From Candidatus Omnitrophota bacterium (GTDB lineage Bacteria; Omnitrophota; Gorgyraeia; Zapsychrales; JAKLDJ01): a DNA stretch of 64,000 nucleotides. Positions 33,689-60,843 of this stretch are shown here, piece by piece. The position numbers were made by a program, and so were the translations under genes. Within the stretch, counting starts at the first letter, position 1. The number at the start of each line of letters is the position of its first letter. Where the stretch lies: contig JAKLDJ010000001.1 of the NCBI GenBank assembly GCA_022703585.1, forward strand, positions 440,695 to 504,694, read 5' to 3'. The notes under the pieces were generated by a model. The model was not told where the DNA came from. It was given only the letters and a program-made list of their open reading frames with translations, and made no database searches.

Positions 33689-33696
33689 TGACCACT

Positions 33697-40898: not shown

Positions 40899-41110
40899 CT
40901 TTTTGCCCTTCTTTATAAATTCTAGAAAAGGGCAAAAGAAGATCCTGCGAAGCTGAACGCCGATCGAAGATCGAGCAATTCAGCGAAGCAGGATCCAAAT
41001 ATAAGATTAAGGGCTCTGCTTCGCCAAATGCTTATCGAGTTTGGCTTCGCAGGACCCGATTCGCGCAACAAATTTATGTTCGCTTTCGCTCCATAAATTT
41101 AGCGCTCATC

Positions 41111-41193
41111 GGGCAAGTGGTGGAATGGCATACACGAAGGACTTAAAATCCTTTGGCCGTCAGGCTGTGAGGGTTCGACTCCCTCCTTGCCCA
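41111..41193 (+). tRNA. tRNA-Leu (anticodon UAA), long variable arm.
   Basis: GGGCAAG...AAGGA-CTTAAAA-TCCTT...variable arm...GAGGGTTCGACTCCCTC-CTTGCCC-A. 83 nt. Coordinates ±2. Confidence 0.8.
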
Positions 41194-41304
41194 TGTTTGG
41201 AATGTTTTAAGTTTTAAGTGTAAAGTTTTAAGTGGGTAAACTTGCGAAAGACCGAGAGGCGGCACACTTTAAACTTAACACTTTAAACGTGATAACTTAA
41301 TAGC

Positions 41305-41381
41305 GGACTCGTAGCTCAGTTGGTTAGAGCGCTTCCTTGACATGGAAGAGGTCGGAGGTTCGAGCCCCCCCGAGTCCACCA
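41305..41381 (+). tRNA. tRNA-Val (anticodon GAC) with encoded CCA.
   Basis: GGACTCGTAGCTCAGTTGGTTAGAGCGCTTCCTTGACATGGAAGAGGTCGGAGGTTCGAGCCCCCCCGAGTCCACCA. Coordinates ±2. Confidence 0.85.
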
Positions 41382-45143: not shown

Positions 45144-45155
45144 GAGAAAATAGGC

Positions 45156-45818
45156 GTGTACATTATTATCGTAGGCGGCGGCAAGATAGGATTTTTTCTG
45201 GCCAAAAGATTATTTAAAGATAATCACGCGGTTGTCGTTGTTGAGAAGGATGCCGAAACCGCCGATGTAATCGCCCGCGAATTTAAAGGGACTGTTATCT
45301 GCGGAGATGGCTGTGAACCCTCGGTTTTAGAGCAGGCGGGGATCGCGCGCGCGGATGTGGTCGCGGCTGTGACCGGAGTCGATGAGGATAACTTTATTAT
45401 CTGCCAGATCGCCAAGGACCAATTCAGGGTCAATCGCACCGTCGGGCGCGTCAATGACCCGGACAATGAACGCGCCTTTAATGAATTGGGTATTGATGTC
45501 CCCATCGGCGTGACCATGATTTTGGCTAAGATCATCGAAGAAGAAGTTTCATTTTCGGATTTTGTGGATCTGTTAAGTTTTAAACGCGGCAAATTAGCCT
45601 TAATCCGGGTGGATCTGCCCGAAAGCTCTCCCGTTATCAATAAAAAAGTCCAAGACCTGCAGCTTCCTCCCAGCTCTGTTCTCGTTTCTGTTGTCCGCGG
45701 CGACGACGTTATTGTCCCCAAAGGAGACACGGTTCTTAAGCCTCTCGACGATGTCGTGGCCCTGACCCTGGTTGAAAATAAACAACAGCTTTTAAGTTTT
45801 CTTATAGGGAAAATGTAA
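45156..45818 (+). CDS. trkA: Second TrkA/KtrA-like RCK protein (GTG start).
   Basis: IIVGGGKIGFFLAKRL. Tandem paralog of the preceding gene. Confidence 0.85.
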   Translation: MYIIIVGGGKIGFFLAKRLFKDNHAVVVVEKDAETADVIAREFKGTVICGDGCEPSVLEQAGIARADVVAAVTGVDEDNFIICQIAKDQFRVNRTVGRVNDPDNERAFNELGIDVPIGVTMILAKIIEEEVSFSDFVDLLSFKRGKLALIRVDLPESSPVINKKVQDLQLPPSSVLVSVVRGDDVIVPKGDTVLKPLDDVVALTLVENKQQLLSFLIGKM

Positions 45819-45821
45819 ACC

Positions 45822-45941
45822 ATGTTTCGCCTTAAAGAAATTTGCTTAGGGATCTTAGTCGAATTGGGATTTATTCTTCTGATCCTTGTGATCGGATTTC
45901 TAATCGGCTGGGGCATGCTCACCTTTTTTAACCGCTTTTAA
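45822..45941 (+). CDS. Possible 39-aa single-pass membrane peptide between trkA and trkH.
   Basis: MFRLKEICLGILVELGFILLILVIGFLIGWGMLTFFNRF. Below the track cutoff, no homology argument. Coordinates ±2. Confidence 0.25.
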   Translation: MFRLKEICLGILVELGFILLILVIGFLIGWGMLTFFNRF

Positions 45942-45944
45942 CTG

Positions 45945-47447
45945 ATGATCTTAAGACCTCAATTCAGCGATTTTAAAGTCATCGGCTTTTATCTAAGCAA
46001 GCTGGTTATCGGCGTTGCCCTTTTTATGGTCCTGCCGATGGCTGTCGCTTTTCTTGCAAAAGAATTGAATCCGCTCTACGATTTCTTCATAAGTTTCCTC
46101 GCCTGTCTTATTCTGGGCTCGATTTTGTACATCGTCTGTTACACGAAAGAAGAAGCGCGCTGGTCTCATGGAATGGTGGTGGTTTCCCTGGCATGGGCTC
46201 TAGCCGCGATTTTAGGCGCTCTACCGCTTTTCTTAAGTGGGCATTTTAATTCATTTTTAGATGCGGTATTTGAGGCAATGTCGGGTTTTACCACGTCGGG
46301 ACTTACCCTTGCCCAAGACCTGGGGCATATGTCGTATGCGCATAATTTCTGGCGGCACTTGATGATGTTTTTAGGCGGCCAGGGAATTGTGGTTATTGTC
46401 TTGGCCTATTTTGTGCGCGGGGCGACAGGTGCGTTTCGCCTTTATGTGGGAGAGGGAAGAGACGAGCGGCTGCTGCCGGATATACGCCAGACAGCGCGCT
46501 TTATCTGGATGGTAAGCGCCGTCTATTTAGTTTTAGGAACGCTGACGCTGGGCATTATTTTATTCTTTGAAGGAATGCCCTTTTTGAAATCAATTTTTCA
46601 CGGCGTCTGCATTTTTATGACTGGGTTTGATACGGGAGGCTTTGCACCCCAGCAGCAAAATGTCATGTATTACCACAGCCTAGCATTTGAAATCGGAACG
46701 CTTATGGTTATGCTTCTGGGGGCTATCAACTTCAAATTGCATTATGTTCTCTGGACGGGAAATCGAAAAGAGATCTGGCGCAATATTGAAACCCGGACAT
46801 TGTTTTTTGCGATTATGTTCGCGTTTGTCCTGGTGGCGCTGGGCTTAAGCAAAATGCACGTTTATCCGACGGCGTTGGCGCTTTTTCGCAAGGGATTTTA
46901 TCACCTTATCTCTGCCCAGACGGGCACGGGTTTCCAGGTGGTGTATTCGGATCAATTTGTCAATGAGTGGAACGGTCTTTCTCTGGCAGGGCTCATCCTG
47001 GCGATGTCCTTAGGTGGTTGTATATGCTCGACCACGGGTGCGATCAAAATGTTGCGCATCGGGATTATTACCAAGACATTTATTAGCGACGTCAAGCGTC
47101 ATATCTCGCCTGCCTTGACGGTCTTAATCGAGAAAATGCACCACATTAAAGATTCTATTCTTACTGACGCCCAGATGCGCTCGGCCTGTTTGGTAACTAT
47201 TGCCTATATCGTGGTGTATGTCACCGGCGCGGTCATCGGCATGCTCTACGGATATCCTTTTGTCGAATCGCTTTTTGAATCCACCTCGGCGGCAGCGAAT
47301 GTCGGGCTTTCCTGCGGGATTACCAATCCCGGGATGCCGGACGGATTAAAGATTGTTTATATCGTCCAGATGTGGGCGGGGCGATTGGAATTTATGTCGG
47401 TTTTTGTTTTGATCGGATTTGTGGTGGCGCTTATTAAAGGAAAATAA
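45945..47447 (+). CDS. trkH: TrkH/KtrB-family K+ uptake membrane subunit.
   Basis: 500 aa, about 10 TM, selectivity-filter-like GFTTSGLT/TGFDTGGF motifs. Confidence 0.9.
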   Translation: MILRPQFSDFKVIGFYLSKLVIGVALFMVLPMAVAFLAKELNPLYDFFISFLACLILGSILYIVCYTKEEARWSHGMVVVSLAWALAAILGALPLFLSGHFNSFLDAVFEAMSGFTTSGLTLAQDLGHMSYAHNFWRHLMMFLGGQGIVVIVLAYFVRGATGAFRLYVGEGRDERLLPDIRQTARFIWMVSAVYLVLGTLTLGIILFFEGMPFLKSIFHGVCIFMTGFDTGGFAPQQQNVMYYHSLAFEIGTLMVMLLGAINFKLHYVLWTGNRKEIWRNIETRTLFFAIMFAFVLVALGLSKMHVYPTALALFRKGFYHLISAQTGTGFQVVYSDQFVNEWNGLSLAGLILAMSLGGCICSTTGAIKMLRIGIITKTFISDVKRHISPALTVLIEKMHHIKDSILTDAQMRSACLVTIAYIVVYVTGAVIGMLYGYPFVESLFESTSAAANVGLSCGITNPGMPDGLKIVYIVQMWAGRLEFMSVFVLIGFVVALIKGK

Positions 47448-47448
47448 G

Positions 47449-47985
47449 ATGCACAAAATGTTTGTAAGAAAAATTATCGCCGGCATTGTTTGCGTGACTG
47501 TTGTTTTATCTAACGCCGGAGTTCTTTTGGCGAAGAACGATTCCGAGGATGTTCTGCGCGTCACGGCGGCTCAATTAATCCAAAAAGCAAAAGATTTTAA
47601 CGGTAAAACTGTTATAATACAAGGCGAAGTCATCGGCGACGTTATGCCGCGAGGGGAATTTGCCTGGCTTAATATTGATGACACCTCCCATGCGATTGGC
47701 GTGTGGGCGCCTAAAGCCATGGTTTCTGGTATCCGCTACACCGGAGACTATCAATATAAAGGCGATACGATTGAGGTGAGGGGAAGATTTTTTAGGGCTG
47801 ATGCAGACCTAAGCGGGGAATTGTGTATCCGCGCCCAGAAAATTATCACGCTCAAAGAAGGATACCGCACATTCCGCATCCTGCGGCCGGCTAAGGCAGA
47901 AATATCGTTGGCGCTATCGCTGGTGGTTTTTTGTTTGGGCAGTATCATTTTATTTATAAGAAAAAGAACTCCCGCAAGAAAGTAG
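47449..47985 (+). CDS. Hypothetical exported/membrane-anchored protein (N-terminal signal, C-terminal TM).
   Basis: MHKMFVRKIIAGIVCVTVVLSNAGVLLA signal. No recognised domain. Start placed at the internal ATG. Confidence 0.5.
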   Translation: MHKMFVRKIIAGIVCVTVVLSNAGVLLAKNDSEDVLRVTAAQLIQKAKDFNGKTVIIQGEVIGDVMPRGEFAWLNIDDTSHAIGVWAPKAMVSGIRYTGDYQYKGDTIEVRGRFFRADADLSGELCIRAQKIITLKEGYRTFRILRPAKAEISLALSLVVFCLGSIILFIRKRTPARK

Positions 47986-47992
47986 AAGACAG

Positions 47993-49036
47993 ATGTCTTG
48001 GGATTTTGAGAAAATAGAAAACGAAGCAAGACAGGAAATATCCATGGCGCCCGACTCGGCAGCCGTTGAGGCAATTCGCGTTAAGTATCTGGGCCGCAAG
48101 GGCTTAGTATCCGAGATTTATTCGAATCTACCTAATGTCCCCGCAGAGGAAAAGCCCTTAGTCGGAAAAAATGCCAACATCCTAAAGAATAAAGTTACCC
48201 AGTGGCTCCAAGAAAAAGGGCAGACAATCGAAGAGCAAAAACGGCAGCAGTCATCCGCTGAGAAAAGACTCGACGTTACCATGCCCGGAGCCGGCGCAAC
48301 AATCGGCCACCGCCACATCCTGACCCAAACAGTTGATGATATCTGCCGTATTTTTGAGGGGATGGGTTTTGTTACCTTTGAAGGCCCTGAGGTAGAAACG
48401 GAATTTAATAATTTTTCCGCCCTGAATATCCCCATTGATCATCCTTCGCGCGATGCCTTTGATACTTTTTACGTTGACGTCAAAGACCCGGACAAAAAAG
48501 ACAGGTTTCTTTTATTACGCAGCCATACCTCGCCGGCGCAAATCCGGGTTATGAAAAAATACACCCCGCCCTTAGCGGTTATTGTCCCGGGAAAGGTGTA
48601 TCGCCCCGACGCTGTTGACGCCAGCCATTCGTTTATGTTTCATCAGGTAGAAGGGCTTTTGGTTGACGAAAAAGTAAAATTCTCCGATCTTAAAGGGCTG
48701 CTGACGATTTTTTGCCAAAGGCTTTTCGGCGAAGAAATAAAAATGCGTTTTCGCCCGCACTTTTTTCCTTTTACCGAACCTTCCGCTGAAGTAGACATTT
48801 CCTGTTATATCTGCAAAGGAAAGGGTTGCTCGGTTTGCGGCCGCAAAGGCTGGCTCGAGATCTTAGGCTCGGGGATGGTGCATCCGAAGGTTTTTGAGGC
48901 CGTCGGCTATCCTTTAAAGAAATATACCGGGTTTGCCTTTGGCATGGGTGTTGAGCGCATCGCCATGCTTAAATATGGCATTAACGATATCCGCCTGTTC
49001 TTCGAAAACGATACACGGTTTTCGAATCAATTTTAA
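47993..49036 (+). CDS. pheS: Phenylalanine--tRNA ligase alpha subunit.
   Basis: Class II core motifs (FRPHFFPFTEPSAEVD, GFAFGMGVERIAML). Confidence 0.95.
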   Translation: MSWDFEKIENEARQEISMAPDSAAVEAIRVKYLGRKGLVSEIYSNLPNVPAEEKPLVGKNANILKNKVTQWLQEKGQTIEEQKRQQSSAEKRLDVTMPGAGATIGHRHILTQTVDDICRIFEGMGFVTFEGPEVETEFNNFSALNIPIDHPSRDAFDTFYVDVKDPDKKDRFLLLRSHTSPAQIRVMKKYTPPLAVIVPGKVYRPDAVDASHSFMFHQVEGLLVDEKVKFSDLKGLLTIFCQRLFGEEIKMRFRPHFFPFTEPSAEVDISCYICKGKGCSVCGRKGWLEILGSGMVHPKVFEAVGYPLKKYTGFAFGMGVERIAMLKYGINDIRLFFENDTRFSNQF

Positions 49037-49368
49037 TTTCCAGCAATAGCGACTCCCCTGTAAATCAATATACCCCAAGCGCTTATATAATAATTATTGC
49101 GATTTGCTCTTTCGCCAGCGTTTTTATTCAGGTAAGAAAATACGGCAAATTTTCTGAAGAAAATTTGCCGCAAGCGGGGTAAAAAACTTCCTTTAAAAAA
49201 CTGTTTTTGAGGAACCGCTTCCTTAATTTTCCAGGTTACTATTGTTTGCCTCCCCTATATAAGATATACTTTTAATAGAACAATCAGACGCATATTTTCT
49301 TCGGGAAAGGGTAAAATTTTCCGGAGAAGGGCTTTTTTTACCCCAGGGTTTATTTATAGAGGGAAACC

Positions 49369-49398
49369 GGCGGCCCCTGTTGGCAGGGGCCGCCGCCC
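49369..49398 (+). terminator. 12-bp GC hairpin after pheS (possible terminator separating pheS from the array).
   Basis: cggcggcccctg-ttgg-caggggccgccg followed by cccgaaatatttcttt. Confidence 0.4.
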
Positions 49399-49458
49399 GA
49401 AATATTTCTTTAGCGAAGATTTTTCTCCAGTTCTGTTTAGAAACAGAGAGAGGGAAAC

Positions 49459-51324
49459 ATGAAAATAATTCTATCTATTGTTACCGCAATTTTGCTGTTG
49501 GCTGTGTTTTTTTCGCCCGCCTACGCCCAGACCGAGACCATGACGCTGACCACCTACTACCCTGCGCCACTGGGATTCTACAGTCAATTAAGACTGGTGC
49601 CGCGTAGCGCGACCTTGGGCCCGCCGGTTACATGCGATAACGCAAGCAAGGCTTCTTCCTTGGGTGTGATGTGGCTTGACGGGAGTCTGGGAGTCGATAC
49701 TCTTAAAATCTGTCAAGACGATGGCACCGGTACTCTTACCTGGACAACTCTTGGTAGCGGTGGCGGCGGCAGCCTTTGGACCAGAACCGGCAGCAATCTT
49801 TATCCCATCAATATAACCGACAATATCGGCGTGGGAACACAAGCACCCCAAGCTCCCTTGCACATACGGAATGGCACTAACCCTAACATTATTCTGGAAT
49901 ATGACCTCAATCACAAATTAGAATTAACCCATAACGGCACCGATGGTGTTATCACGACAGACACGGGAGCTATTCGATTGGAGCCTAACTTGGGCGTGTC
50001 GACGTTCACCGAAATCGGCGGCACGGGCGGCCTGATGAGCACGTTACTAACGACGCGAGGGACGGCGATTCAAGGAATCTCAGAGCAAACCGCAGGCGCA
50101 GGGGATAATACGGGTGTCTATGGTAGGGCTGGCGGAGGGGGATTGACGGCCACAAAATACGGCGTTCAAGGAATCGCAGCCAGCGATGACGCGGGGCTTA
50201 AGGTCGGTGTTTACGGTGAAGCCGGCGGCATTGACGGACGAAAATATGGGGTCTACGGAAGGGTAGCTGCGGATGACTCATCTGATAAATACGCACTCTA
50301 TGCAAGAACGATAGGAGGAAATGTTAGCGCGAATATATACGGTTTAGATACCTGGGCGTTTGGCAATGCCGGTACGAAGTATGGAGTAAACGCATCGGCT
50401 ACCGGCTTGGGCGGGGATAATTATGCTGTAAAGGGCGGGTCCACCAGTGTGGGGGGCACAACAGGCTATGGCCTTTATGGTTCATCTGTGGGAGCGGGAA
50501 CAAATTATGGTGTCTACGCAACCGCCTCCGGGGGCAGCACCAACTATGCCGGGTATTTTGCCGGCGATTTAGCTATAAGCAACCAACCCGCAGGAACGCA
50601 CTCAAGACTTTTTATTAACGGCGATGGCAAGTTGCAAATCACATCCTCCAACAGCCTTAAGAATCGACTGGTTATTGGGGAGCCCCTTGCCAGCATGTCC
50701 ATGGCTAACGCTGCGGGTATGGACATCGGGACTCCCGGGTCACCCGGGGGCGCTAACGCCTTTATAACCCTGGGCACAAACAGCACTAATGAATATGGGT
50801 ACCTGGGGTGGATAGGTACTAACCCCGGGTTCGAATATATTTCACTCCTTTCGACGGGAGGTATTAATTTGATTTCCAGGCTTCCGACCAGTGTCCAGGA
50901 AAACCGTTTGCGTATTACAAACGACGGCCATATTTACCTTGACACGCTTATTTCCGGGGCCGGTAACGCCTCGATACGATACAATACGACGACAAAAGAA
51001 ATAACCTATACTCCGCTTGTTTCTTCAAAGCGCTATAAGAAAGATATCGCAAATCTCGAGTTTGATACGGACGGATTGTATTCTTTGCGGCCCGTTTCGT
51101 TTACGTGGAAAGAGAGCAGCATACGGGATTTTGGCCTTATCGCTGAAGAGGTGGATGAGGTCTTGCCCTCGCTGGTGGCCTATGATGCTCAAGGCAGGCC
51201 CGATAGCGTGGCTTATGACAAGTTACCCGTCCTACTTTTAGTCGAAATGCAAAAACTGCGCGCGGAAAACCGCGCGCTGCAAGAACGCGTCGAGAAGTTA
51301 GAGGCTGCGGTCGGCGCAGAATAA
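49459..51324 (+). CDS. Secreted fibre-like paralog 1 (621 aa): signal peptide, conserved family N-domain, Gly/Tyr-rich repeats, C-terminal Peptidase-S74 intramolecular chaperone domain (as in phage tail fibre/endosialidase).
   Basis: Signal peptide with AYA|QTE cleavage site. N-domain QTETMTLTTYYPAPLGFYSQLRLVPR...LKICQDDGTG...NLYPINITDNIGVGTQAP. YGVxG repeats. C-terminus SSKRYKKDIANLEFDTDGLYSLRPVSFTWK...GLIAEEVDEVLPSLVAYD...coiled coil = S74 signature. Confidence 0.8.
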   Translation: MKIILSIVTAILLLAVFFSPAYAQTETMTLTTYYPAPLGFYSQLRLVPRSATLGPPVTCDNASKASSLGVMWLDGSLGVDTLKICQDDGTGTLTWTTLGSGGGGSLWTRTGSNLYPINITDNIGVGTQAPQAPLHIRNGTNPNIILEYDLNHKLELTHNGTDGVITTDTGAIRLEPNLGVSTFTEIGGTGGLMSTLLTTRGTAIQGISEQTAGAGDNTGVYGRAGGGGLTATKYGVQGIAASDDAGLKVGVYGEAGGIDGRKYGVYGRVAADDSSDKYALYARTIGGNVSANIYGLDTWAFGNAGTKYGVNASATGLGGDNYAVKGGSTSVGGTTGYGLYGSSVGAGTNYGVYATASGGSTNYAGYFAGDLAISNQPAGTHSRLFINGDGKLQITSSNSLKNRLVIGEPLASMSMANAAGMDIGTPGSPGGANAFITLGTNSTNEYGYLGWIGTNPGFEYISLLSTGGINLISRLPTSVQENRLRITNDGHIYLDTLISGAGNASIRYNTTTKEITYTPLVSSKRYKKDIANLEFDTDGLYSLRPVSFTWKESSIRDFGLIAEEVDEVLPSLVAYDAQGRPDSVAYDKLPVLLLVEMQKLRAENRALQERVEKLEAAVGAE

Positions 51325-51421
51325 TCGCATTGTTATCCTCTCGCGGAGATATTCAGAATTGGTGACGCTTCCTCCGAGCTATCGGTAAAGACGGATATTT
51401 CTTTAGAAAGAAGGATCGGGC

Positions 51422-53032
51422 ATGAAAAAACTACGAATTATTATTCTTCTCGTCGTGATGGCGGCTATGGTCGCGGTTACCGCCTACGCCCAGACCGAGA
51501 CCATGACGCTGACGACATATTATCCGGCGCCACTGGGATTTTATAGCCAGTTAAGGCTGGTACCGCGTGACGGGGCCGCCTTGGGCCCACCGGTTACATG
51601 CGATAATGCAAGCCGGATTTCTGCCCTGGGCGTGATGTGGCTTGACTCAAGCTTGGGAGTTGATACTCTTAAAATCTGTCAAGACGACGGCACAGGTACG
51701 GGCACTCTTGCCTGGATGTCTGTTGGCAGTGGTGGTGGCGGAAGTCTTTGGGCCAGAACCGGAAGCAATCTTTATCCAACTAACATAGGAGACAATGTTG
51801 GGGTTGGTACTGCTGCGCCGGAACAAAAATTACACATCGAGGGTGCTTTTCCGACACTTCTTATCAAGGGTACCGGAGCTCCGGGCCTTGTTCTTCGCGA
51901 TACTGATGCTGCCGGCGGTAGCTGGCCGTATATAGCCTTCAGCGGAAATGAAGGCGCGGCTATTACTGGCGATGACAGCTCGCAGGAAATATTCGGGTTT
52001 TATAGCGCTTTCACGGATCCCCGTAGCAACGATGCGGAAATTCGTATCCACGGCAAAGGCGCTGGCTGGGGCAACTATTTATCTTTAACTCACGACGGCA
52101 CCGACGGAATTATTTCAACCGATATTGGTAATATTGCCATTAATCCAGAGCGTGGTGCTAGCCCAAAAGGTGTTGCCATTGGTGTACCGGATGCAAGCTT
52201 AAACAACGCTCAGGCTCTTACTATCGGTAACAATGTTAATGCAGTCGATTGGAGAAACAAACTCGGGTACAACAATATCCGCATTGGTGGCGCCGGAGCC
52301 TTGCCGAATAATTGGCCGATGATCATTTTTGATGATGCAAACCAGGCCAATACACTCTGGTCCCTGTCTAATACTGAGCATTCCAACTACAATGATTTTC
52401 TTATAGAAAAAATCGATACCACATCAGGTATTGGTTCTGCTGTTCTGCTATTAGGAGGTGCCAATAGTTTATCAGCGCTGTTTGGGGTGAGCGGTCCCTG
52501 GGGATTATGGGGTCATAAATTCGAAGGACTTCAGTCAGAGGTCCGGATGGACTCTACCCAACTAATGAATACCTCGAACGTCCGCATAGGCAGAATCGGC
52601 AACGTCAATAACGGCAATGGCGCGGTTATATTAGAAACAACGAGAAACGGCGGCCATCAGGTATTAATGAATATTGATGACAATGGAGTCTTGCAGGTCC
52701 AAGGGGCACTTGCGAGCACGTCATCCAGTTCGCAGTCGCTTACGAGTACGTCATTCAGTTCGAGACGGACATACGGCGTTTATATTGTATCCGATGGCGG
52801 TACCGAAGAATGGAAGACTATCGGCGCATGGGATATGTGTTTTCTTGGGACGCATGCGGAAAATCATTCCCTGGTTGGAGGTCAGTGTGATGTTTATAGC
52901 GATCAACTCCCGCCACCCGACAATACGATCTCGTTTAACCCAAATACGCAACCGACTTGGAAAATACATGCTAAGCGGAATGGAAGCAACGGCACAATAG
53001 CTTGTAGGGCAACCTGCGTGAATTTTCGATAA
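51422..53032 (+). CDS. Secreted fibre-like paralog 2 (536 aa): same N-domain, shared middle module with paralog 5, Cys-containing C-terminal knob, no S74 domain.
   Basis: AYA|QTETMTLTTYYPAPLGFYSQLRLVPR... Module LHIEGAFPTLLIKGTGAPGLVLRDTDAAG...AEIRIHGK...YLSLTHDGTDG. C-terminus ...GTIACRATCVNFR. Confidence 0.8.
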   Translation: MKKLRIIILLVVMAAMVAVTAYAQTETMTLTTYYPAPLGFYSQLRLVPRDGAALGPPVTCDNASRISALGVMWLDSSLGVDTLKICQDDGTGTGTLAWMSVGSGGGGSLWARTGSNLYPTNIGDNVGVGTAAPEQKLHIEGAFPTLLIKGTGAPGLVLRDTDAAGGSWPYIAFSGNEGAAITGDDSSQEIFGFYSAFTDPRSNDAEIRIHGKGAGWGNYLSLTHDGTDGIISTDIGNIAINPERGASPKGVAIGVPDASLNNAQALTIGNNVNAVDWRNKLGYNNIRIGGAGALPNNWPMIIFDDANQANTLWSLSNTEHSNYNDFLIEKIDTTSGIGSAVLLLGGANSLSALFGVSGPWGLWGHKFEGLQSEVRMDSTQLMNTSNVRIGRIGNVNNGNGAVILETTRNGGHQVLMNIDDNGVLQVQGALASTSSSSQSLTSTSFSSRRTYGVYIVSDGGTEEWKTIGAWDMCFLGTHAENHSLVGGQCDVYSDQLPPPDNTISFNPNTQPTWKIHAKRNGSNGTIACRATCVNFR

Positions 53033-53048
53033 TATGCCCTGAAGGACG

Positions 53049-54458
53049 GTGAGGATGAGAAAAACCTTTATGATCTTTCTTGGCGCGGTTTTAGCGATGA
53101 CAGCAACCTTTGCCCTCGCCCAAACCGAATCCATGACACTGACAACGTATTACCCTGCGCCACTGGGATTTTATAGCCAGTTAAGGCTGGTACCGCGTGA
53201 CGGGGCCGCCTTGGGCCCACCGGTTACATGCGATAATGCAAGCCGGATTTCTGCCCTGGGCGTGATGTGGCTTGACTCAAGCTTGGGAGTTGATACTCTT
53301 AAAATCTGTCAAGACGATGGCACTGGCACTCTCACCTGGGTCCCTGTTGGCGGCGGCGGTGGCGGTAGCAGTTTTTGGAATAGAACCGGTACTAATCTTT
53401 ATCCAGTCAACATAGACGACAATATCGGCATCGGGACAAATGCCCCGGCTACTAAGTTGCATGTCCAGGGAGTCGGAGACCCGACAGTAACCATCGAAGT
53501 TACGGGTGGCGGCATGGGACGGCCCACGGTTCAATTTCTCGGTAATAACGGCGTTATTGCAGCTGATGTTGGCGGAAAGGTTGCTATTACCAACAGCACT
53601 GCTATTGATGTTCCGTCCGACTTTGATGAAAATCAGGTCCAGGGTCTCACGATTGTAGGCAGAGCGACACCGATCGATGAAAATATGCATTTGACACACT
53701 CGAACGTTCGTATAGGCAGAGGAACCCTGATGAACGGGCCCATGATACTACTGGATAGCACATCGTCTGACCGCACCTGGTTTATAGAGGCAAATAAAGT
53801 GAATGGTTGGAACGGAGGCGCCACAACGTCTGACCTGACCCTTGGTTACCAGATGATTGGCGGCGCTACCTACAATGCCATGCACATCGGCGGGCCGAAT
53901 AGAAGAGCCGTGCTTTTTGGCTGGGACTCGGGCAATCCCGCCAGCCGTTCTTTTAGCGGGGTGCAATCAGAAGTGACTTTTAGTCCGGCAGCAGCGTTGA
54001 TGAATTCGGGCAATGCGCGTATCGGTGTTGTCCGGTCAGGCAGCCGCTCCGGCGGGGCGCTCATTCTGGAAAGTTATGATGCCACAAATCCCGCGCTCCA
54101 CCCCCAATTTCGGATCTATGCGGATGAAATCGGACAACTCAATTTCGGCCCTGCGGGAGCGATCAGCAAATTCGACGGTAACGTTTGGATTACTAATAGT
54201 TTAAATGTTTCTGGGGCGGGGATGGGACAGCAAACAACTCTGCAGAACACGACGGTGAACGGCGAGCTAACTGTTCCGTTCAATCGTTGGGGAACAGACC
54301 CTGGCGCTGGATCAAACGTAGCGATACCATCAAGTTGTGTTAGGGCTGCTAATAGTGCCGAACAAGGTTGTCAATGTCCCGACGGATCTTACATGGTCGG
54401 TTTCTCTATAACTAACGGCACCAATAATGGTTTTTCAATTTACTGCAGGCGACTCTAA
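53049..54458 (+). CDS. Secreted fibre-like paralog 3 (469 aa): same N-domain (about 160 nt nucleotide-identical to paralog 2), divergent body, Cys-containing C-terminal knob.
   Basis: ALA|QTESMTLTTYYPAPLGFYSQLRLVPRDGAALGPPVTCDNASRISALGVMWLDSSLGVDTLKICQDDGTG. C-terminus ...EQGCQCPDGSYMVGFSITNGTNNGFSIYCRRL. Confidence 0.8.
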   Translation: MRMRKTFMIFLGAVLAMTATFALAQTESMTLTTYYPAPLGFYSQLRLVPRDGAALGPPVTCDNASRISALGVMWLDSSLGVDTLKICQDDGTGTLTWVPVGGGGGGSSFWNRTGTNLYPVNIDDNIGIGTNAPATKLHVQGVGDPTVTIEVTGGGMGRPTVQFLGNNGVIAADVGGKVAITNSTAIDVPSDFDENQVQGLTIVGRATPIDENMHLTHSNVRIGRGTLMNGPMILLDSTSSDRTWFIEANKVNGWNGGATTSDLTLGYQMIGGATYNAMHIGGPNRRAVLFGWDSGNPASRSFSGVQSEVTFSPAAALMNSGNARIGVVRSGSRSGGALILESYDATNPALHPQFRIYADEIGQLNFGPAGAISKFDGNVWITNSLNVSGAGMGQQTTLQNTTVNGELTVPFNRWGTDPGAGSNVAIPSSCVRAANSAEQGCQCPDGSYMVGFSITNGTNNGFSIYCRRL

Positions 54459-54476
54459 ACTTTATCGAGGTGACAT

Positions 54477-56459
54477 ATGGTTGGATTAAAATATCTGATT
54501 ATCTTGGCCGTTCTTCTCATAGGAATCCCCGCCCACGCTCAAACCGAATCCATGACTATGACCACCTATTACCCGGCGCCGCTGGGATTTTATAATCAGA
54601 TGCGTTTGGTGCCTCGTATCGCGGCACCCGGCCCATGTGACCTTACCGATGCGACCTCCTCTCCAGGCCTGATGTGGTTTGACCAGGCAATCAATACTCT
54701 TAAAATCTGTCAAGACGATGGCACCGGCGCAGGTAGTATTGCCTGGATGTCTCTTGGCGGCAGCGGTGGAGGTGGCGGTCTTTGGACCAGAACGGGCAAC
54801 AATCTTTATCCAGCCAACATCGGCGACAGGGTCGGCATCGGGACCGACAATCCCGGCGTGACTCTGGATGTGGTGGGGCAAACCGGGATACGCATTAACG
54901 ATAATATTGATAATTGGCCGGCGCGGATCAGAATGGTTGATACAGTGGTCGAGGGAGCCGGAACAAGAGACGATTTGATGATGGAGACGGACGGCGGCTT
55001 ATTTGTTCAACTGGACAATAATAATAACGGGATTTCGGGCATTGTGGGTTTCGGCATTCTGGACGGGCAAAACAACGTGCTGGTGAACGTGCTCGAGGAT
55101 AATGGCAATGTCGGCATCGGGACAGGGATTGACGCCCCTACTGCCAAGTTGCAAGTTAAAGATGGAGTTGTGCTTTTTGACGGCGATATCGGATCGACTC
55201 CCGTCTCCGGCGTCGGAACACGCTTCATGTGGATACCCGAAAAACATGCGTTACGGGCAGGCCACGTGGCTGAGGAACGGCCTTTGGTGTGGGATGATGC
55301 CAACATAGGGATGAATTCATTCGCGGCCGGCCTTAATCCGGAAGCGAGCGGAGCTCAAAGTATAGCGCTTGGTCAGAACGTAACGGCGCAAGGCCAGCGG
55401 TCGGTAGCGCTAAACAGCGGAACCCAGGCGCTGGGCCTGGGCAGTCTTGCGACGGGAGGCGTCACACAAGCCACGGCAGATTGGAGTACGGCAATGGGGT
55501 TCCGCGCAAGAGCCTTGCATGAAAAGTCATTTGCCATTGGCCTAGATGTGGAAGAAAGCGAACAATGCGATACGACAGCAGAGGGGCAACTTATGCTGTG
55601 CGGTGAAGAGGTTGTTCTGGGCAATCTCAGTTTCGACGGTGCCATATTCCGGCAAGGTGCAACGCTGTATGGAAATCAGGCGGCAACGCATGTGAACTTA
55701 GGTACCGCCGGCACAACCGGTGATGAATTTCTAAATAATACCTATTGTACCGTTTCGGGAGGGCGTAGCAATCAGGCAAAAGGAAGCTTTTCGACTGTCG
55801 CGGGAGGTGAGAACAACTACACTCTTTTTAATGCGACCCATGGTACGGTCTCGGGAGGACGGTGGAATTCAGCTCAAGGTGATTATGCGACTTCTCCCGG
55901 AGGCTGGGATAACGATGCTATGGGCCAATATTCGTTTGCAGCCGGACGAGAGGCCAAGGCCGATGATGTGGGGTCTTTTGTCTGGTCCGCCAGCAGCTCA
56001 GGTGCGGAGTGCCATTCCAGCGGTGACTACAGCTTTACGGCCTGTGCGCCGGGAGGGGTTTTCTTGAGGGGGGAAGTTTTTTTGCCGAACATCCATATCG
56101 GTCCGCCGCCCGGTTCGATGTTTCAATATAGCCTGTACATGAATGAGAATTTTCAAGTATGGAGGATGGGATCCTCGAAGCGCTACAAAAAAGACATCAG
56201 TGATTTGGAAATAAATTCTGAGAAAATCTATGGATTGCGTCCGGTGTCGTTTACCTGGATCAGCGGTGGCCAGCGGGATTTTGGCCTTATTGCCGAAGAA
56301 ACAGAAGCTGTTATGCCGGAATTAGTATCGTTTGACAAAGACGGCACTCCCGAGAGCGTGCGTTATGACCAGTTGCCGGTTTTGTTGCTTAACGAAATCA
56401 AGAAACTCAACGAAAGAATAACCGTGCTTGAGCAACGGCTGGAGATATACGAGAAATAA
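54477..56459 (+). CDS. Secreted fibre-like paralog 4 (660 aa): same N-domain, divergent body, C-terminal Peptidase-S74 chaperone domain.
   Basis: AHA|QTESMTMTTYYPAPLGFYNQMRLVPR. C-terminus SSKRYKKDISDLEINSEKIYGLRPVSFTWISGGQRDFGLIAEETEAVMPELVSFD...LEQRLEIYEK. Confidence 0.8.
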   Translation: MVGLKYLIILAVLLIGIPAHAQTESMTMTTYYPAPLGFYNQMRLVPRIAAPGPCDLTDATSSPGLMWFDQAINTLKICQDDGTGAGSIAWMSLGGSGGGGGLWTRTGNNLYPANIGDRVGIGTDNPGVTLDVVGQTGIRINDNIDNWPARIRMVDTVVEGAGTRDDLMMETDGGLFVQLDNNNNGISGIVGFGILDGQNNVLVNVLEDNGNVGIGTGIDAPTAKLQVKDGVVLFDGDIGSTPVSGVGTRFMWIPEKHALRAGHVAEERPLVWDDANIGMNSFAAGLNPEASGAQSIALGQNVTAQGQRSVALNSGTQALGLGSLATGGVTQATADWSTAMGFRARALHEKSFAIGLDVEESEQCDTTAEGQLMLCGEEVVLGNLSFDGAIFRQGATLYGNQAATHVNLGTAGTTGDEFLNNTYCTVSGGRSNQAKGSFSTVAGGENNYTLFNATHGTVSGGRWNSAQGDYATSPGGWDNDAMGQYSFAAGREAKADDVGSFVWSASSSGAECHSSGDYSFTACAPGGVFLRGEVFLPNIHIGPPPGSMFQYSLYMNENFQVWRMGSSKRYKKDISDLEINSEKIYGLRPVSFTWISGGQRDFGLIAEETEAVMPELVSFDKDGTPESVRYDQLPVLLLNEIKKLNERITVLEQRLEIYEK

Positions 56460-56501
56460 CATTGCTAGTGCGATAAGAAAGATTTTAAAAAAGTAAAAAC
56501 C

Positions 56502-58241
56502 ATGAAGAAACTATTTCTCGCCGTTTTAATTTCGACATTGGTGACAACTGTCACTCATGCCCAGACCGAGTCTATGAATCTAACCACCTACTACCCGGCG
56601 CCGATGGGAAATTATAACCAGTTGCGCTTGGTCCCGCGCGGAGGTGCACCGGTAACCTGCAATAACGCCAATCCGGATTCCGCGGGTGTGATGTGGTTTA
56701 ATCAGGCAACCAATAGTTTTCATATCTGTCAAGACGATGGCACAGGTGTTATTACCTGGGTATCTATCGGCGGCGTTGGCGGCGGCAATCTTTGGGCCAG
56801 AACCGGCAATAATCTTTATCCAGCCAACCTAGGCGATAATGTCGGCATCGGAACCCAAACACCGCAACAAAAACTGCATATCGAAGGCGCTTTTCCAATA
56901 CTGCTTATCCGCGGTACCGGAGCCCCGGCCCTTGTCCTTGACGATACCGATGCTGCCGGCAGCCGGCCTTTTATAAAATTCGGCGGAAACAGCCTGGGAG
57001 CTTTCATCGGACAAGACTCCTGGCATCAGACATTTGAATTTTATAGCGACTTTCAGCTTACCCGCGCTCACGACGCGGAAATCCGCGTCCACGGCAAAGC
57101 CCCCGGCGGCAGTTGGGATAGATATTTATCATTAACCCACGACGGGACAGACGGGTACATTGAAACAGATGTCGGCGACATTGTTATTAATCCGAAAGAG
57201 ACGGATGTAGCCATACCCGAGCCGGCATTATCCATTGATGCTGCCTCAAAAAATATAGGAATACGCACCAGCGACGTGACTCCTCAGGCAACTGTTCAAA
57301 TCGGCAATAACCTGGGTTTTGGATGGGCTCCGCATGCCCTGACTGTCGGAGGTGCGGGTTCGGTCGGGGGCTCGGTGGCGGTCGGTGTAAACAGCAGCAA
57401 AATGGGGGTTTTCCAGCATTCTGCCGCAGGCACTTCGACCGACGTTAGCTCTACGGATGACCTGCGCTTAGGGGCAGCCGGTTCTATTTATCAATCTACG
57501 GCAGGATTAAATCGCATGAAAATCGATACCGGCGGTTCTATTGCTATGTATGCGAATGATGGCGCACTAACGGCTTTTCAAATGGCCAGTACAGGGTCAA
57601 TGTTTTTTCAGGGCCCGGCTTCTTTTAGCCAGCCTCTGAGTATCGGCAACAGTATTGACGATGACGTGGATGTTAGCTTGGGAGAGCACAATACTGTTTG
57701 TTGGGATTCGAAATGTATTCGCGGGATCAATTCGCCCGGCGGCAGCTGGCTTCAGTTCGGGCACTTTGTTTCCGGGGCATGGGATACCGTAATGTCTTTG
57801 GCGACTGCGCCGTCTACAGGATTGGGTATTAGCGGCTCTTTGAATATATCGGGCACAGCCACTAAACCGGGCGGCGGGCCCTGGAGCGCTTCTTCTGATG
57901 CCCGTCTTAAAAAGAATATTGCGTCGATCGATAATGCACTTGACACCATGCTTTCTCTTCGCGGAGTTACCTTTGAGTGGAGAGAACCGGAAAAGCAAGG
58001 CAATCTGACCGGGCCGCAGATGGGCCTGATTGCCCAAGAAGCAGAAAAGGTGTTTCCTCAGTGGGTGACGACCGGAGAAGACGGTTATAAGATTTTGTCG
58101 ATCCGGGGATTCGAAGCCCTCGCCATCGAGGCCATGCGCGACATGAAAAAAGAGATCGATCAGCTAAAACAGGAAAATCAAGAGTTGCGCCGGGAACTTG
58201 ATACGCTTAAGAAAGTTCCCGACGGAGATTCTCCTATTTAG
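56502..58241 (+). CDS. Secreted fibre-like paralog 5 (579 aa): same N-domain, paralog-2-type middle module, C-terminal Peptidase-S74 chaperone domain.
   Basis: THA|QTESMNLTTYYPAPMGNYNQLRLVPR. Module LHIEGAFPILLIRGTGAPALVLDDTDAAG...AEIRVHGK...YLSLTHDGTDG. C-terminus SSDARLKKNIASIDNALDTMLSLRGVTFEWRE...GLIAQEAEKVFPQWV...coiled coil. Confidence 0.8.
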   Translation: MKKLFLAVLISTLVTTVTHAQTESMNLTTYYPAPMGNYNQLRLVPRGGAPVTCNNANPDSAGVMWFNQATNSFHICQDDGTGVITWVSIGGVGGGNLWARTGNNLYPANLGDNVGIGTQTPQQKLHIEGAFPILLIRGTGAPALVLDDTDAAGSRPFIKFGGNSLGAFIGQDSWHQTFEFYSDFQLTRAHDAEIRVHGKAPGGSWDRYLSLTHDGTDGYIETDVGDIVINPKETDVAIPEPALSIDAASKNIGIRTSDVTPQATVQIGNNLGFGWAPHALTVGGAGSVGGSVAVGVNSSKMGVFQHSAAGTSTDVSSTDDLRLGAAGSIYQSTAGLNRMKIDTGGSIAMYANDGALTAFQMASTGSMFFQGPASFSQPLSIGNSIDDDVDVSLGEHNTVCWDSKCIRGINSPGGSWLQFGHFVSGAWDTVMSLATAPSTGLGISGSLNISGTATKPGGGPWSASSDARLKKNIASIDNALDTMLSLRGVTFEWREPEKQGNLTGPQMGLIAQEAEKVFPQWVTTGEDGYKILSIRGFEALAIEAMRDMKKEIDQLKQENQELRRELDTLKKVPDGDSPI

Positions 58242-58252
58242 TTTCTTGCCAA

Positions 58253-58282
58253 AACTCTTCGCAGGCGAGAGATTTTTTTGTT
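58253..58282 (+). terminator. Intrinsic terminator after the paralog array.
   Basis: ctcttcgc-agg-cgagag followed by attttttt. Confidence 0.45.
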
Positions 58283-58451
58283 TTATTTGAATATTTTCCT
58301 TGCATTCTGCTTTCAGCCGCCCCCGCGAGAGGCTGTGGCTCTTATTGCGTGCCACCGCGCACTCTTTCCATAAAATATTTCCTTTTCAATTCCCCTTCGA
58401 TACGCTAATATAGAATGTCACTTTCTTCTTGATCCAAAAAATAATTTTAAA

Positions 58452-60491
58452 ATGAAATTATCCTATAACTGGCTTAAAAATTATATCGCGGTCAACGTGA
58501 ACGCCGAAACCCTAGCCCACAAACTCACCATGGCGGGCTTGGAGGTTAAGGCGATTGACACGGTTGACAGCGACAGCGTATTTGAAATAGAAATCACGCC
58601 TAACCGTCCGGATTGCTTAAGCGTCCTGGGCATTGCCCGTGAGGCGTCGGCGATTTTTAATAAGCCTCTCAAGATCCCCGCTGTTAAGAACTTAAAACTT
58701 CCCAAACAAAAATGTGACCTGGCGATCCTGGATAAAAAGGATTGTTTGCGCTATATCGGCTGTCTCATAAATAATGTTTCGGTCAGGCAATCCCCTGAAT
58801 GGATCAAAAAACCTTTAACCGCCGTAGAACTGCGCACCATTAACAACGTTGTCGATATTACGAATTTTGGCCTTATGGAAACCGGCCAGCCCATGCACGC
58901 CTTTGACTTTGACAAGTTAGCCGGGGGAAAGATTATTGTCCGCCGCGCCAAGGAGGGCGAAAAAATCATTACCATCGATGGTATTGAGAGAAAACTTGAT
59001 CCCTCGATTTTGGTTATTGCCGACGAGAAAAAGACAGTGGCCATTGCCGGTATCATGGGCGGGAAGGAAACCGAGGTTACCGAATCGACAAAAAATATTC
59101 TGTTGGAAAGTGCCTACTTTGAACCGATTTTGATAAGGCGCGCCGGGCGTAAGCTGGGCTTGAGCACGGACGCGTCGTATCGTTTTGAGCGCGGGGTTGA
59201 CATGGAGGGGGTTGAGCAGGGTGCCCGGCGCGCCACTGCGCTTATCTGCCAAGAAGCGGGCGGCAGCATTCAGGGGTATTTTGATTTATATCCCGGTAAA
59301 CGAAAAGATGTAAAACGCCAAACCAGCATTACCAAAAATCAAATTGACGAATTTTTAGGTGCCCCCATTTCGCTTGAGCGGGGCAAGGCTATTTTAAACA
59401 GGCTCGGGTTTAAAACCGCCAACGGCGCCAAAGGTGCGTTAAAGATTTCTATTCCCCCTTTTAGAAACGATGTCAAAGGCGATGTCGATATCATCGAGGA
59501 GATTGCCCGGGTCGTGGGTTATGATAATTTGCCCGTGACCTTGCCCGAGGTAAAATTTTCTAATGTGGCTGTGAATCCGAATCGGATTCTAAGAAAGAGG
59601 GTAACGGACAGCCTTCTGGCCTTAGGGCTTAACGAAGCCGTCAGCTATTCGATGACCAGCCGAAAGAATATTGAGGCCGCAAAGCTTGACTCTGCGCTTG
59701 CCGTCAAAGTCAAAAACCCCTTAACCCTCGAGCAGGAATGTTTAAGATTTTCGATGCTGCCCAGCTTATTGGAACTGATATCGATTAATCTCAACCGCGG
59801 GCAGAGGGATATAAAATTCTTCGAGGCCGGAAAAACCTATTTTACCGACGGAGAGAAAGAAACCTTGGGGATTATCATGTCGGGGCACCTATCGGTCGAC
59901 TGGCGAAAAGGCATCAAGGCCGAGGCAGATTTTTATGACATCAAGGGCGTGATTGAAAATACCCTCGAAAAAATCGGCGTTACACCTGTTGAATGGGTAC
60001 CGAACAAGTCTCCCGTATTCGAACCGGGGCAGGGTGCCGAGATTATTTTAAATGGCGAGGCTGTCGGCGCCTTAGGGGCAATAGCCGCCGAGATTTTGCA
60101 CCGGTGGGACATAAAGCAAAAGGGTATTTTGTTTGCCGAACTTGATTTGGAAACAATATATGCCCAGGCGGCTAAAAAAACCGCCGGACGAAAATACTGC
60201 CCCCTGCCGACTTTTCCGGCGGTGGTACGAGATTTAAGCCTGGCTATTAAAAGCGAAGTCAGTTTTCAACAGGTCCGCGAAACAATCCAAAAGACCGCCG
60301 GAGACCTTTTAGCCTCGGTTAAATTAATAGAACAGTATTTAGGCGAAAAAATTCCGCCGGGTCAGCGCGGATTAGTCCTTTCCTTGACTTATCAATCCTC
60401 GGCACGGACGCTGCGCGAAGATGAAGTGAATCAAGCTCACGAGAAAATCTGCAAAGCCCTGATTGACACCTTCGGCGCTGTCCGACGATAA
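58452..60491 (+). CDS. pheT: Phenylalanine--tRNA ligase beta subunit (short form lacking the EMAP-like tRNA-binding insert).
   Basis: MKLSYNWLKNYI... B1 N-terminus, B3/4 and B5 domains, C-terminal anticodon-binding. 679 aa. Confidence 0.95.
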   Translation: MKLSYNWLKNYIAVNVNAETLAHKLTMAGLEVKAIDTVDSDSVFEIEITPNRPDCLSVLGIAREASAIFNKPLKIPAVKNLKLPKQKCDLAILDKKDCLRYIGCLINNVSVRQSPEWIKKPLTAVELRTINNVVDITNFGLMETGQPMHAFDFDKLAGGKIIVRRAKEGEKIITIDGIERKLDPSILVIADEKKTVAIAGIMGGKETEVTESTKNILLESAYFEPILIRRAGRKLGLSTDASYRFERGVDMEGVEQGARRATALICQEAGGSIQGYFDLYPGKRKDVKRQTSITKNQIDEFLGAPISLERGKAILNRLGFKTANGAKGALKISIPPFRNDVKGDVDIIEEIARVVGYDNLPVTLPEVKFSNVAVNPNRILRKRVTDSLLALGLNEAVSYSMTSRKNIEAAKLDSALAVKVKNPLTLEQECLRFSMLPSLLELISINLNRGQRDIKFFEAGKTYFTDGEKETLGIIMSGHLSVDWRKGIKAEADFYDIKGVIENTLEKIGVTPVEWVPNKSPVFEPGQGAEIILNGEAVGALGAIAAEILHRWDIKQKGILFAELDLETIYAQAAKKTAGRKYCPLPTFPAVVRDLSLAIKSEVSFQQVRETIQKTAGDLLASVKLIEQYLGEKIPPGQRGLVLSLTYQSSARTLREDEVNQAHEKICKALIDTFGAVRR

Positions 60492-60843
60492 ATTTATCCT
60501 CTTTAGTCATTGAAAGCCCTTAGGGGGCTGTGTTATAATCCATTATCGATTGATAAAAATCCCTGCTTTGTTCGTTGGGGAACAGATGTAATGAACCAAC
60601 ACATTACAATCGGGCGCCGGACTTCTAATTGCCTGAGGGCAATTTAGAGAGGCACCCACGTTAACGATGGGGTTCACTTACCCTTTACCTAACGGCACGG
60701 TGGGGACTTAATAAGCACGCGGCTTATGGACTGCGGCCTTAAGGCTCAGGAACATAAGTTGCTGTGTGCATTAGCACCGCCGCTAGCATCGGCTGCCTGC
60801 TAACAGGCAGACGATGCGGCGGTGTAAATCCTCGGCATCCCCC

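Follow-up and report, generated by a model that had tools for sequence, protein, structure and literature searches.

The Bdellovibrio bacteriovorus superfamily of mosaic adhesive trimers (MAT) comprises 21 paralogues, each with a signal peptide followed by an invariant, β-rich N-domain of ~130 aa, which has no homologue in the PDB and which its describers presume to bind an element of the predator surface (Caulton et al. 2024; PMC10769870). The fibres have a trimeric shaft that carries a V-G-x-G-x-x-P-x-x-x-L capping loop, and the tips are S74 domains (SDxxxK) in 13 members and of other kinds in 8; the fibres have been seen on the predator surface, one of them binds a prey glycan, and in structure the tip of Bd3182 comes nearest to the P22 tailspike (PMC10769870). 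Here we compare with these fibres an array of five paralogous genes (P1–P5) that lies between pheS and pheT in a 64-kb stretch of DNA, called the window below, from a Candidatus Omnitrophota bacterium of anaerobic-digester origin. The array probably codes for a set of fibre adhesins that are homotrimeric and exported by Sec, an Omnitrophota counterpart of the MAT fibres, a reading that we hold with somewhat more confidence than doubt.

Omnitrophota, an abundant group of ultra-small, uncultured bacteria, are presumably diderm, and a predatory or parasitic way of life is assumed for them. Genomic and giant-protein work on the phylum has dealt mainly with type IV pili and with giant proteins (PMC10066038; bioRxiv 10.1101/2023.11.21.568195); neither source mentions the protein family described below, S74 or tail-fibre proteins, and our literature search found no paper that links Omnitrophota to tail fibres or S74 and turned up no usable proteome data for OP3 LiM.

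The five paralogues occupy the pheS–pheT interval on the + strand. The upstream boundary is pheS (47993–49036, +), which encodes the 347-aa α subunit of phenylalanyl-tRNA synthetase (Pfam tRNA-synt_2d, E = 8.9e-99, and Phe_tRNA-synt_N; ‘phenylalanine--tRNA ligase subunit alpha’ at NCBI), and the downstream boundary is pheT (58452–60491, +), which encodes the 679-aa β subunit (Pfam B3_4, B5, tRNA_synthFbeta and FDX-ACB). The latter is short: Pfam detects no tRNA_bind (B2) domain in it, and B1 only faintly. P1 (49459–51324, +, 621 aa) consists of a signal peptide with N-terminal tag and N-domain (49459–49878), a Gly-rich ‘YGVYG’ repeat shaft and an S74 domain (~51022–51324). P2 (51422–53032, +, 536 aa; N-domain 51422–51850) has one module in common with P5 and another with P3, and no S74. 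P3 (53049–54458, +; N-domain 53049–53477), also without S74, is 469 aa long if read from GTG; the ATG at 53055, which would give 467 aa, is probably the true start, since the gene callers choose it and a GAAGGA box lies upstream. P4 (54477–56459, +, 660 aa; N-domain 54477–54890) contains a putative UspA1/YadA-type head-repeat region (~55293–55979) and S74 (~56172–56459), and P5 (56502–58241, +, 579 aa; N-domain 56502–56906) the P2-shared module, a shaft, and S74 with a C-terminal coiled coil (~57894–58241). With the probable exception of the P3 start, the open reading frames (ORFs) and Pfam agree with the five same-strand genes, and their lengths, listed in an earlier interpretation of this DNA made from its letters (the sequence-only reading). 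Annotation by the Prokaryotic Genome Annotation Pipeline (PGAP) gives ‘tail fiber domain-containing protein’ for P1 and P5 and ‘hypothetical’ for P2, under the NCBI organism label Candidatus Omnitrophota bacterium.

P1–P5 share an N-terminal region of ~135 aa with 55 invariant columns and 56–73% identity to P1, and their scores against the family hidden Markov model (HMM; E = 1e-23 to 1e-27 each) put this likeness far beyond chance. All five begin with a hydrophobic leader and an AxA site, as expected from the Sec signal peptides that had been predicted for them. The N-domain had been described as near-invariant; it is well conserved, but truly invariant only in a 26-residue tag that follows the AxA site, the mature N-terminus of the window paralogues reading QTE[ST]MxxTTYYPAPxGxYxQxRLVPR. 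Two Cys of the N-module are invariant as well. AlphaFold2 (AF2) models the leader as a helix and places a confident three-stranded β unit in the N-module.

When the N-domain profile was run against 1.84 billion representative proteins, the 13,290 matches were of two distinct kinds. Profile positions ~100–139 (LYPxNxxDNVGIGTxxPxxKLHV) correspond to a shaft repeat unit that occurs in tens of copies in proteins of 2–6 thousand residues, many of them S74-ended. Positions 1–95, the N-module, match only the N-termini of small and medium-sized proteins, all of which carry TTYYP[AS]PxGxY. The long environmental ‘tail fiber domain-containing’ proteins have the same repeat (LYPxNxxxNVGIGTxxPxxKLxV) as the window proteins, but none of those in the top 150 HMM matches has the TTYYP tag, and 97 of the 150 are longer than 1,000 aa. 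A word-index homology search gave no match with one N-domain sequence and, with alignments, only proteins of ≤217 aa; it was used for alignments and not for distribution.

Statistics of the tag were taken from a sample of 200 different proteins that carry it. Each has a single copy, which in 170 stands at residues 25–39, directly after the signal peptide; the consensus of the tag is E-x-[IL]-T-[IL]-T-T-Y-Y-P-[SA]-P-[YF]-G-x-Y-x-x-L-R-L-x-P. A Cys...GxMYYD...Cys...W unit follows in 95 of the 200, and the remainder join the tag to other sequence. The cargo proteins are between 62 and 769 aa long and unrelated in their C-terminal parts. No counterpart of the tag (~25 residues, ExITITTYYP[SA]PxGxYxxLRLxP) was found in Pfam, NCBIfam or the PDB.

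At the other end of the proteins, Pfam PF13884 (Peptidase_S74; cut-off 22 bits) matches residues 522–573 of P1 (41.2 bits), 566–617 of P4 (44.4 bits) and 465–522 of P5 (63.2 bits), and does not match P2 or P3, exactly the distribution that had been foreseen. All three S74 paralogues contain the S-[SD]-x3-K motif of the catalytic Ser-Lys dyad: VSSKRYKK in P1 (residue 522), GSSKRYKK in P4 and SSDARLKK in P5. The P5 chaperone aligns with that of a phage long tail fibre (PDB 6f45, E = 1.3e-9), SSDARLKK standing opposite SSDRRIKK, and P5 matches 36 PHROG tail-fibre families, mostly via the C-terminal chaperone region. The centre of P4 aligns with the head of UspA1 (PDB 3pr7, E = 7.6e-12) and with further heads of trimeric autotransporters (3wp8 and 7o23), although the head stays below the Pfam cut-offs (YadA_head 22.8 bits versus 25, UspA1_rep 22.6 versus 27); the same head module is found again in arrays of other genomes. 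The shaft unit NVGIGTQTPQQKLHI and similar units are present in all five paralogues, one to a few per protein. Beyond the N-domain, P2 and P3 have no match in Pfam, PHROGs, NCBIfam, PADLOC or a PDB sequence search. Their tips are unique and contain four Cys each, which fits disulfide-stabilized extracytoplasmic domains. None of the paralogues matched a PADLOC anti-phage defence model at E ≤ 0.01.

The paralogues are mosaics of modules. Right after the N-domain, P2 and P5 share a module (58% identity over 125 aa), P2 and P3 share a middle module (31% identity over 218 aa), and the S74 domains of P1 and P4 are 56% identical. At the DNA level the N-domain copies are 67–94% identical to one another, with 94% over 218 nt between P2 and P3, a likeness that suggests gene conversion. 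A related arrangement is seen in another genome (L005, 7612–12310), where two adjacent paralogues in the pheS–pheT interval (740 and 769 aa) are identical for ~540 residues and then diverge, one S74-ended and the other not; this looks like tip swapping after a recent duplication. Diversification by an invertible element or a diversity-generating retroelement was also considered and is unsupported, since both inverted repeats of ≥25 nt and template/variable repeat pairs are absent.

The best comparator for this architecture is the Bdellovibrio MAT superfamily, of which we do not claim the window array to be a proven member. Searched against all of the PDB, the N-domain profile gave meaningful matches only to MAT structures: 8ond (Bd2133, E = 5.4e-8), 8oml, 8ojn, 8ol4 and 8on4. 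All five matches run through the shaft repeat unit and none through the tag part. The MAT capping loops (NVGIGATAPTAKLE, NVGIGATSPSAKLQ and others in Supplementary Fig. 18 of PMC10769870) match the window repeat unit, so that both sets of proteins have an NVGIGTxxPxxKL capping-loop shaft repeat. In both, a signal peptide directly precedes a conserved N-domain (~135 aa here, ~130 aa in MAT), a likeness of architecture only; S74 and non-S74 members are mixed (3 + 2 in the window, 13 + 8 in MAT); several paralogues occur per genome; and the tips are mosaic and apparently swapped between paralogues. The hosts are also alike in that B. bacteriovorus is a predator, as is the Omnitrophota member that has been studied, its phylum being proposed to be host-dependent (PMC10066038). 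The two systems differ in phylum (Omnitrophota versus Bdellovibrionota), in the mature N-terminal TTYYP[SA]PxGxY tag and Cys-Cys-W unit of the window proteins, and in size: 469–660 aa in the window, with members as short as ~140 aa elsewhere in the family, versus up to ~1,000 aa in MAT (Bd2133, 1,031 aa). The window genes moreover form tandem arrays in core operons. The sequence-only reading had put the array forward as the best candidate for an undescribed system. Its kind is known from the MAT fibres (PMC10769870), but the N-terminal tag and module, seen almost only in Omnitrophota so far, the varied cargo behind the tag and the operon-embedded tandem arrays appear to be new.

Two other classes of trimeric protein share parts of this architecture. 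Phage S74 tail fibres, tailspikes and endosialidases, for example phage K1F endoNF, T5 pb1 and phage S16 gp37 (PDB 6f45), resemble the window proteins in their C-terminal S74 domain, which here scores above the Pfam threshold and has the Ser...Lys motif, and in their modular layout, in which the N-terminal part serves attachment and is conserved while the distal part varies. The window proteins differ in having Sec signal peptides, an N-module that has no confirmed match in viral contigs, and no virion or baseplate context, and their genes are chromosomal, conserved and operon-embedded. With the trimeric autotransporter adhesins (YadA, UspA1, BpaC) the likeness lies in the centre of P4, which resembles the UspA1 head and YadA-like head repeats. 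The window proteins, however, have neither a C-terminal YadA-type anchor β-barrel nor an extended signal peptide, and their polarity would be reversed, the N-terminus being cell-proximal and the C-terminus distal and S74-capped. No paralogue matches YadA_anchor at E ≤ 0.1 (P4 ends in S74 instead), and NCBIfam autotransporter models reach only 16–22 bits versus cut-offs of 750–3000. Identity as trimeric autotransporters was rejected since the anchor is absent. The trimeric fibre or adhesin nature that had been suggested for the array gains support from S74, from the putative UspA1/YadA-type head of P4 and from a shaft repeat shared with the solved Bdellovibrio fibres.

The family extends well beyond the window. 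At least 281 tag loci were confirmed on metagenome contigs among the first 599 pattern matches, and 80 of the confirmed loci, with 115 family members, were kept. Tandem arrays of 2–5 genes are common among these 80; the members range from ~60 to 770 aa, and 18 of the 115 are S74-ended. All organism-labelled family members belong to Omnitrophota, except those of one metagenome-assembled genome (L005), which is labelled Planctomycetales. The window sequence itself is present in identical form on contigs of 0.8–1.6 Mb from several anaerobic-digester metagenomes, and we found no strain variation of the array (100% identity in two other samples).

In the window the array is located within the thrS-infC-rpmI-rplT-pheS-pheT cluster, which is a classical one. 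Five relatives (L005, L012, L017, L046 and L060), with pheS proteins 60–71% identical to that of the window, carry one to three family genes right after pheS. In the four whose contig reaches that far (L005, L012, L046 and L060) pheT comes next, and in L017 the family gene is succeeded by the gene for a secreted protein of 424 aa, with no pheT reached before the contig stops. Judging from the spacers of L046 and L060 (20–60 nt from pheS to the family gene, 4–15 nt from the family gene to pheT), their family genes clearly belong to the pheST operon. Of this set, the genome of the window holds the largest array, and its spacers are the longest. The possibility that L012 is a second locus of the window's genome was ruled out (GC 0.434 versus 0.484; proteins of the thrS...rarA block 55–71% identical). 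The cluster is broken a second time in the window's genome, where the rplT–pheS gap (44496–47985, +) holds two trkA genes, trkH and a gene for a 188-aa membrane protein; the trk insertion is also found in L005, L017 and L046, but not in L012.

Embedding in core operons, on the same strand, recurs in other lineages. Family genes lie between gyrA and, after one further gene, glmS; between argH and a lysA-like decarboxylase gene; between a lysA-like gene and dapA; between dnaE and, further along, hisS; between genes for an ATP-binding cassette (ABC) ATPase and rplM; between a phosphoglycerate-mutase-like gene and mnmG; and adjoining pyrR, pyrB and pyrC. Nor is the splitting of enzyme-subunit genes unique to pheS and pheT, since at L042 (5088–11595) four paralogues (446, 455, 447 and 368 aa, three of them with S74) lie between the genes for the thiamine pyrophosphate (TPP)-binding and gamma subunits of 2-oxoacid:ferredoxin oxidoreductase (POR), with intergenic gaps of ~0–55 nt. 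The sequence-only reading had pictured the array as inserted between pheS and pheT. The comparison with the relatives, which have family genes in the same place, contradicts a recent event: from the gene orders, the placement is an old and conserved trait of the clade, and core-operon embedding is general for the family. Clustering of the neighbours gave housekeeping genes only, with no conserved partner gene beside the arrays; the small ORFs interleaved with them are unrelated. Untagged secreted proteins stand directly beside family genes at three loci (L009, 10480–11190; L017, 10434–11708; L022, 4328–5098); those of L009 and L022 are Cys-rich, and all three share a ‘PL[RK]I..(D)G.YG[IV].LV’ motif.

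The tail-fibre names invite the explanation that the array is a remnant of a prophage or tailocin, its tail-fibre genes having been left after decay of an integrated element. PGAP calls P1 and P5 tail fibre domain-containing proteins, and PHROG tail-fibre matches are many, but these run mostly through the C-terminal chaperone region. With Sec signal peptides on all members, the proteins could not take part in the assembly of virions in the cytoplasm. The annotation of the 64 kb, in line with what had been read from the letters, lists no gene for an integrase, capsid, tail, terminase or reverse transcriptase, and there is no att-like repeat; a search for the N-module/tag pattern in 2.9 million IMG/VR viral contigs matched 11 stretches, none of which was confirmed. 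Codon usage is host-like: the relative synonymous codon usage (RSCU) of the array correlates with that of the flanking housekeeping genes at r = 0.73 (0.87 in a control with housekeeping halves). Family genes follow pheS in six genomes, at pheS identities down to 60–71%, and the setting is one of housekeeping genes and oriC. Given the signal peptides, the lack of confirmed matches in viral contigs and a chromosomal synteny that is conserved, the origin of the array in a prophage is effectively refuted, and the cellular origin favoured by the sequence-only reading is borne out. A second explanation that starts from phage proteins is that the S74 paralogues are secreted, tailspike-like polysaccharide depolymerases, akin to endosialidases, that act on the capsule or cell-wall glycans of other cells, or on biofilm matrix, and not as adhesins. 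S74 was first defined on endosialidases and tailspikes, the PHROG matches are to tail fibre and tailspike families, and among the MAT tips that of Bd3182 is closest to the P22 tailspike (PMC10769870). Against this, Pfam, NCBIfam and the PDB sequence search reveal no catalytic domain (glycosidase, lyase or other) in any paralogue, and the module that can be recognized in P4 resembles an adhesin head; we regard an enzymatic role of this kind as very unlikely.

It is also unlikely, though somewhat less so, that the array encodes the building blocks of a surface polymer, either an appendage (a pilus-like fibre, for instance) or a coat that belongs to the cell covering. In that case the N-terminal strand I-T-L-T-T-Y-Y, with its alternating hydrophobic residues, would link the subunits as a donor strand, and the tandem genes would supply major and minor subunits. 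The common arrays of 2–5 genes, the many members of pilin size (140–250 aa), the invariant tag with its β-strand-like alternating pattern and the placement in housekeeping operons, which suits an abundant structural protein, would all agree with such a polymer. But chaperone-usher, sortase and pilus-assembly genes are absent from the adjacent positions, the AF2 model of the N-module (of low confidence) has no incomplete fold awaiting a donor strand, and S74 chaperones together with heads of the trimeric autotransporter type are hallmarks of self-contained homotrimeric fibres and not of head-to-tail polymers. A different emphasis, which overlaps with the fibre reading, would make the tag a general, phylum-specific sorting or secretion signal that sends many unrelated cargos across or onto the outer membrane, P1–P5 being simply its S74-fibre cargo. 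We doubt this and allow it a modest chance. The tag is single-copy and at residues 25–39 in 170 of 200 proteins, the Cys-Cys-W module follows in only 95 of 200, the cargo of 62 to 769 aa has unrelated C-terminal parts, no Pfam or NCBIfam model covers the tag, and the tag alone is unstructured in AF2. On the other side, no conserved candidate machinery gene adjoins the arrays, and a conserved region of ~135 aa in P1–P5, which is MAT-like, suits a folded docking domain. The logic of a mature N-terminal address is familiar from the N22 segment, which targets CsgA to CsgG. We tentatively put forward, as a possibility that we would not yet favour, the broader idea that ExITITTYYP[SA]PxGxYxxLRLxP defines a hitherto unrecognized, Omnitrophota-specific system for surface display or outer-membrane targeting, in which one envelope receptor or translocon would serve hundreds of cargos. 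If so, these cargos (S74 fibres, adhesin heads and small Cys-rich lectin-like domains) would form an exchangeable arsenal, embedded in operons, with which these bacteria recognize host or prey cells, and the tag would be comparable in standing to LPXTG, PEP-CTERM or the C-terminal domain of the type IX secretion system (T9SS).

The reading of the array as a set of MAT-like fibres has to be set against several observations that weigh against it. The full-length AF2 model of the P3 monomer is poor (mean predicted local distance difference test score, pLDDT, 48), so that the fibre fold of the non-S74 paralogues is not carried by a model. The tag is disordered in the monomer model (pLDDT 60–66), and the tag part of the profile has no PDB match. 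No outer-membrane export or anchoring component was found adjoining the arrays. Many family members are only 140–250 aa long, which is short for a fibre and may signal a broader role of the tag than fibre anchoring.

We nevertheless favour MAT-like fibres and propose the following model. Each protein would be exported by Sec and its signal peptide cut at the AxA site, baring the invariant mature N-terminus, which is followed by a small disulfide-braced β unit. This N-module would act as a common ‘foot’ that either docks all paralogues to one receptor of the cell envelope or routes them across the outer membrane. The remainder of the protein would form a trimeric shaft of NVGIGTxxPxxKL capping-loop repeats, with the distal ends as variable binding tips: a UspA1/YadA-type head in P4 and unique Cys-rich tips in P2 and P3. 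In P1, P4 and P5 the S74 chaperone would drive trimerization and then cleave itself off at the S-[SD]-x3-K site, baring the mature tip. Duplication, module swapping and gene conversion would diversify the repertoire, and the core-operon placement would couple its expression to housekeeping transcription. Export, S74-guided trimerization, self-cleavage and the presentation of tips on a common foot are modelled on what is known of S74 chaperones and MAT fibres; docking or outer-membrane routing by the tag and binding of the tips to other cells are suggested with less assurance. By means of the fibres, an ultra-small, host-dependent bacterium would probably recognize other cells, host or prey, and attach to them. 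Such binding would suit the predatory or parasitic lifestyle that has been proposed for much of the Omnitrophota (PMC10066038).

The array had been described as bracketed by a hairpin after pheS and a terminator after P5; the upstream part of this description stands and the downstream part is weak. The 422-nt spacer between pheS and P1 (49037–49458, +) contains three hairpins, at 49143–49170 (−15.7 kcal/mol, z = −3.6), at 49297–49328 (−17.1 kcal/mol, z = −1.7), where a T-run follows, and at 49368–49395 (−32.2 kcal/mol, z = −3.5), a GC-rich hairpin of 12 bp ~60 nt before the start codon of P1. Two of the three are thus significantly stable (z ~ −3.5). The last of them could be the pheS terminator, or a stabilizer or regulator in the 5′ untranslated region (UTR) of P1. 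A promoter and terminator scan found no σ70 consensus promoter on the + strand of this spacer. The equivalent spacer of the relatives (20–197 nt) is not conserved, and the hairpin at 49368–49395 is not kept in it. Behind P5, a terminator-like element at 58262–58290 (+) consists of an imperfect short stem (CTCTTCGC/GCGAGAG) and a T7 run, and shuffled sequence folds just as well (z = −0.34). No Rfam element (T-box, leader) was found in the pheS–pheT interval.

Several other features of the window were recorded. Downstream of the array, a 6S RNA lies on the + strand between pheT and rarA (60557–60710; Rfam RF00013, 56.1 bits versus a gathering score of 46.4) and is preceded by the best σ70-like promoter of the region (60510–60539, TTGAAA-18-TATAAT with extended TG). 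Just upstream of thrS is a cluster of tRNA-Cys, tRNA-Leu and tRNA-Val (40827–41381, +). The mechanical ORF start of thrS (41337) overlaps tRNA-Val; the gene callers give a protein of 576 aa, which puts the ATG start near 41418. The window also covers the region of the chromosomal origin (24972–35782), where dnaA (31663–32991, −), dnaN, dciA, gyrB and gyrA diverge from yidC, jag, parA and parB, with a change in the sign of the GC skew at ~33–34 kb and a drop in GC to 0.36–0.38 at 34–36 kb. Further genes on the − strand encode a 928-aa protein with Peptidase_C25 (gingipain-type) and Tricorn_N domains (16938–19724), which, as a protease that may be secreted or lie on the surface, could matter to a life as predator or parasite, a secretion or pilus ATPase of the T2SSE family with a weak PilZ domain (12305–13696) and a 1710-aa multi-PAS response-regulator protein (565–5697), followed by a histidine kinase.

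Taken as a whole, the sequence-only reading is partly supported, and its proposal that the window proteins are exposed on the surface and serve in attachment remains plausible on the grounds given above. The repeated placement of family genes between the subunit genes of essential enzymes (pheS and pheT, and two POR subunits) is an unusual pattern of genome organization. The invariant tag offers a simple sequence handle with which the repertoire can be listed in any Omnitrophota genome and an envelope partner can be sought. For the biology of these organisms, MAT-like exchangeable tips would provide concrete candidates of tractable size (470–660 aa) for host or prey recognition, and they would point to a phage-derived fibre toolkit common to Bdellovibrionota and Omnitrophota, two lineages that are unrelated but both have predatory members.

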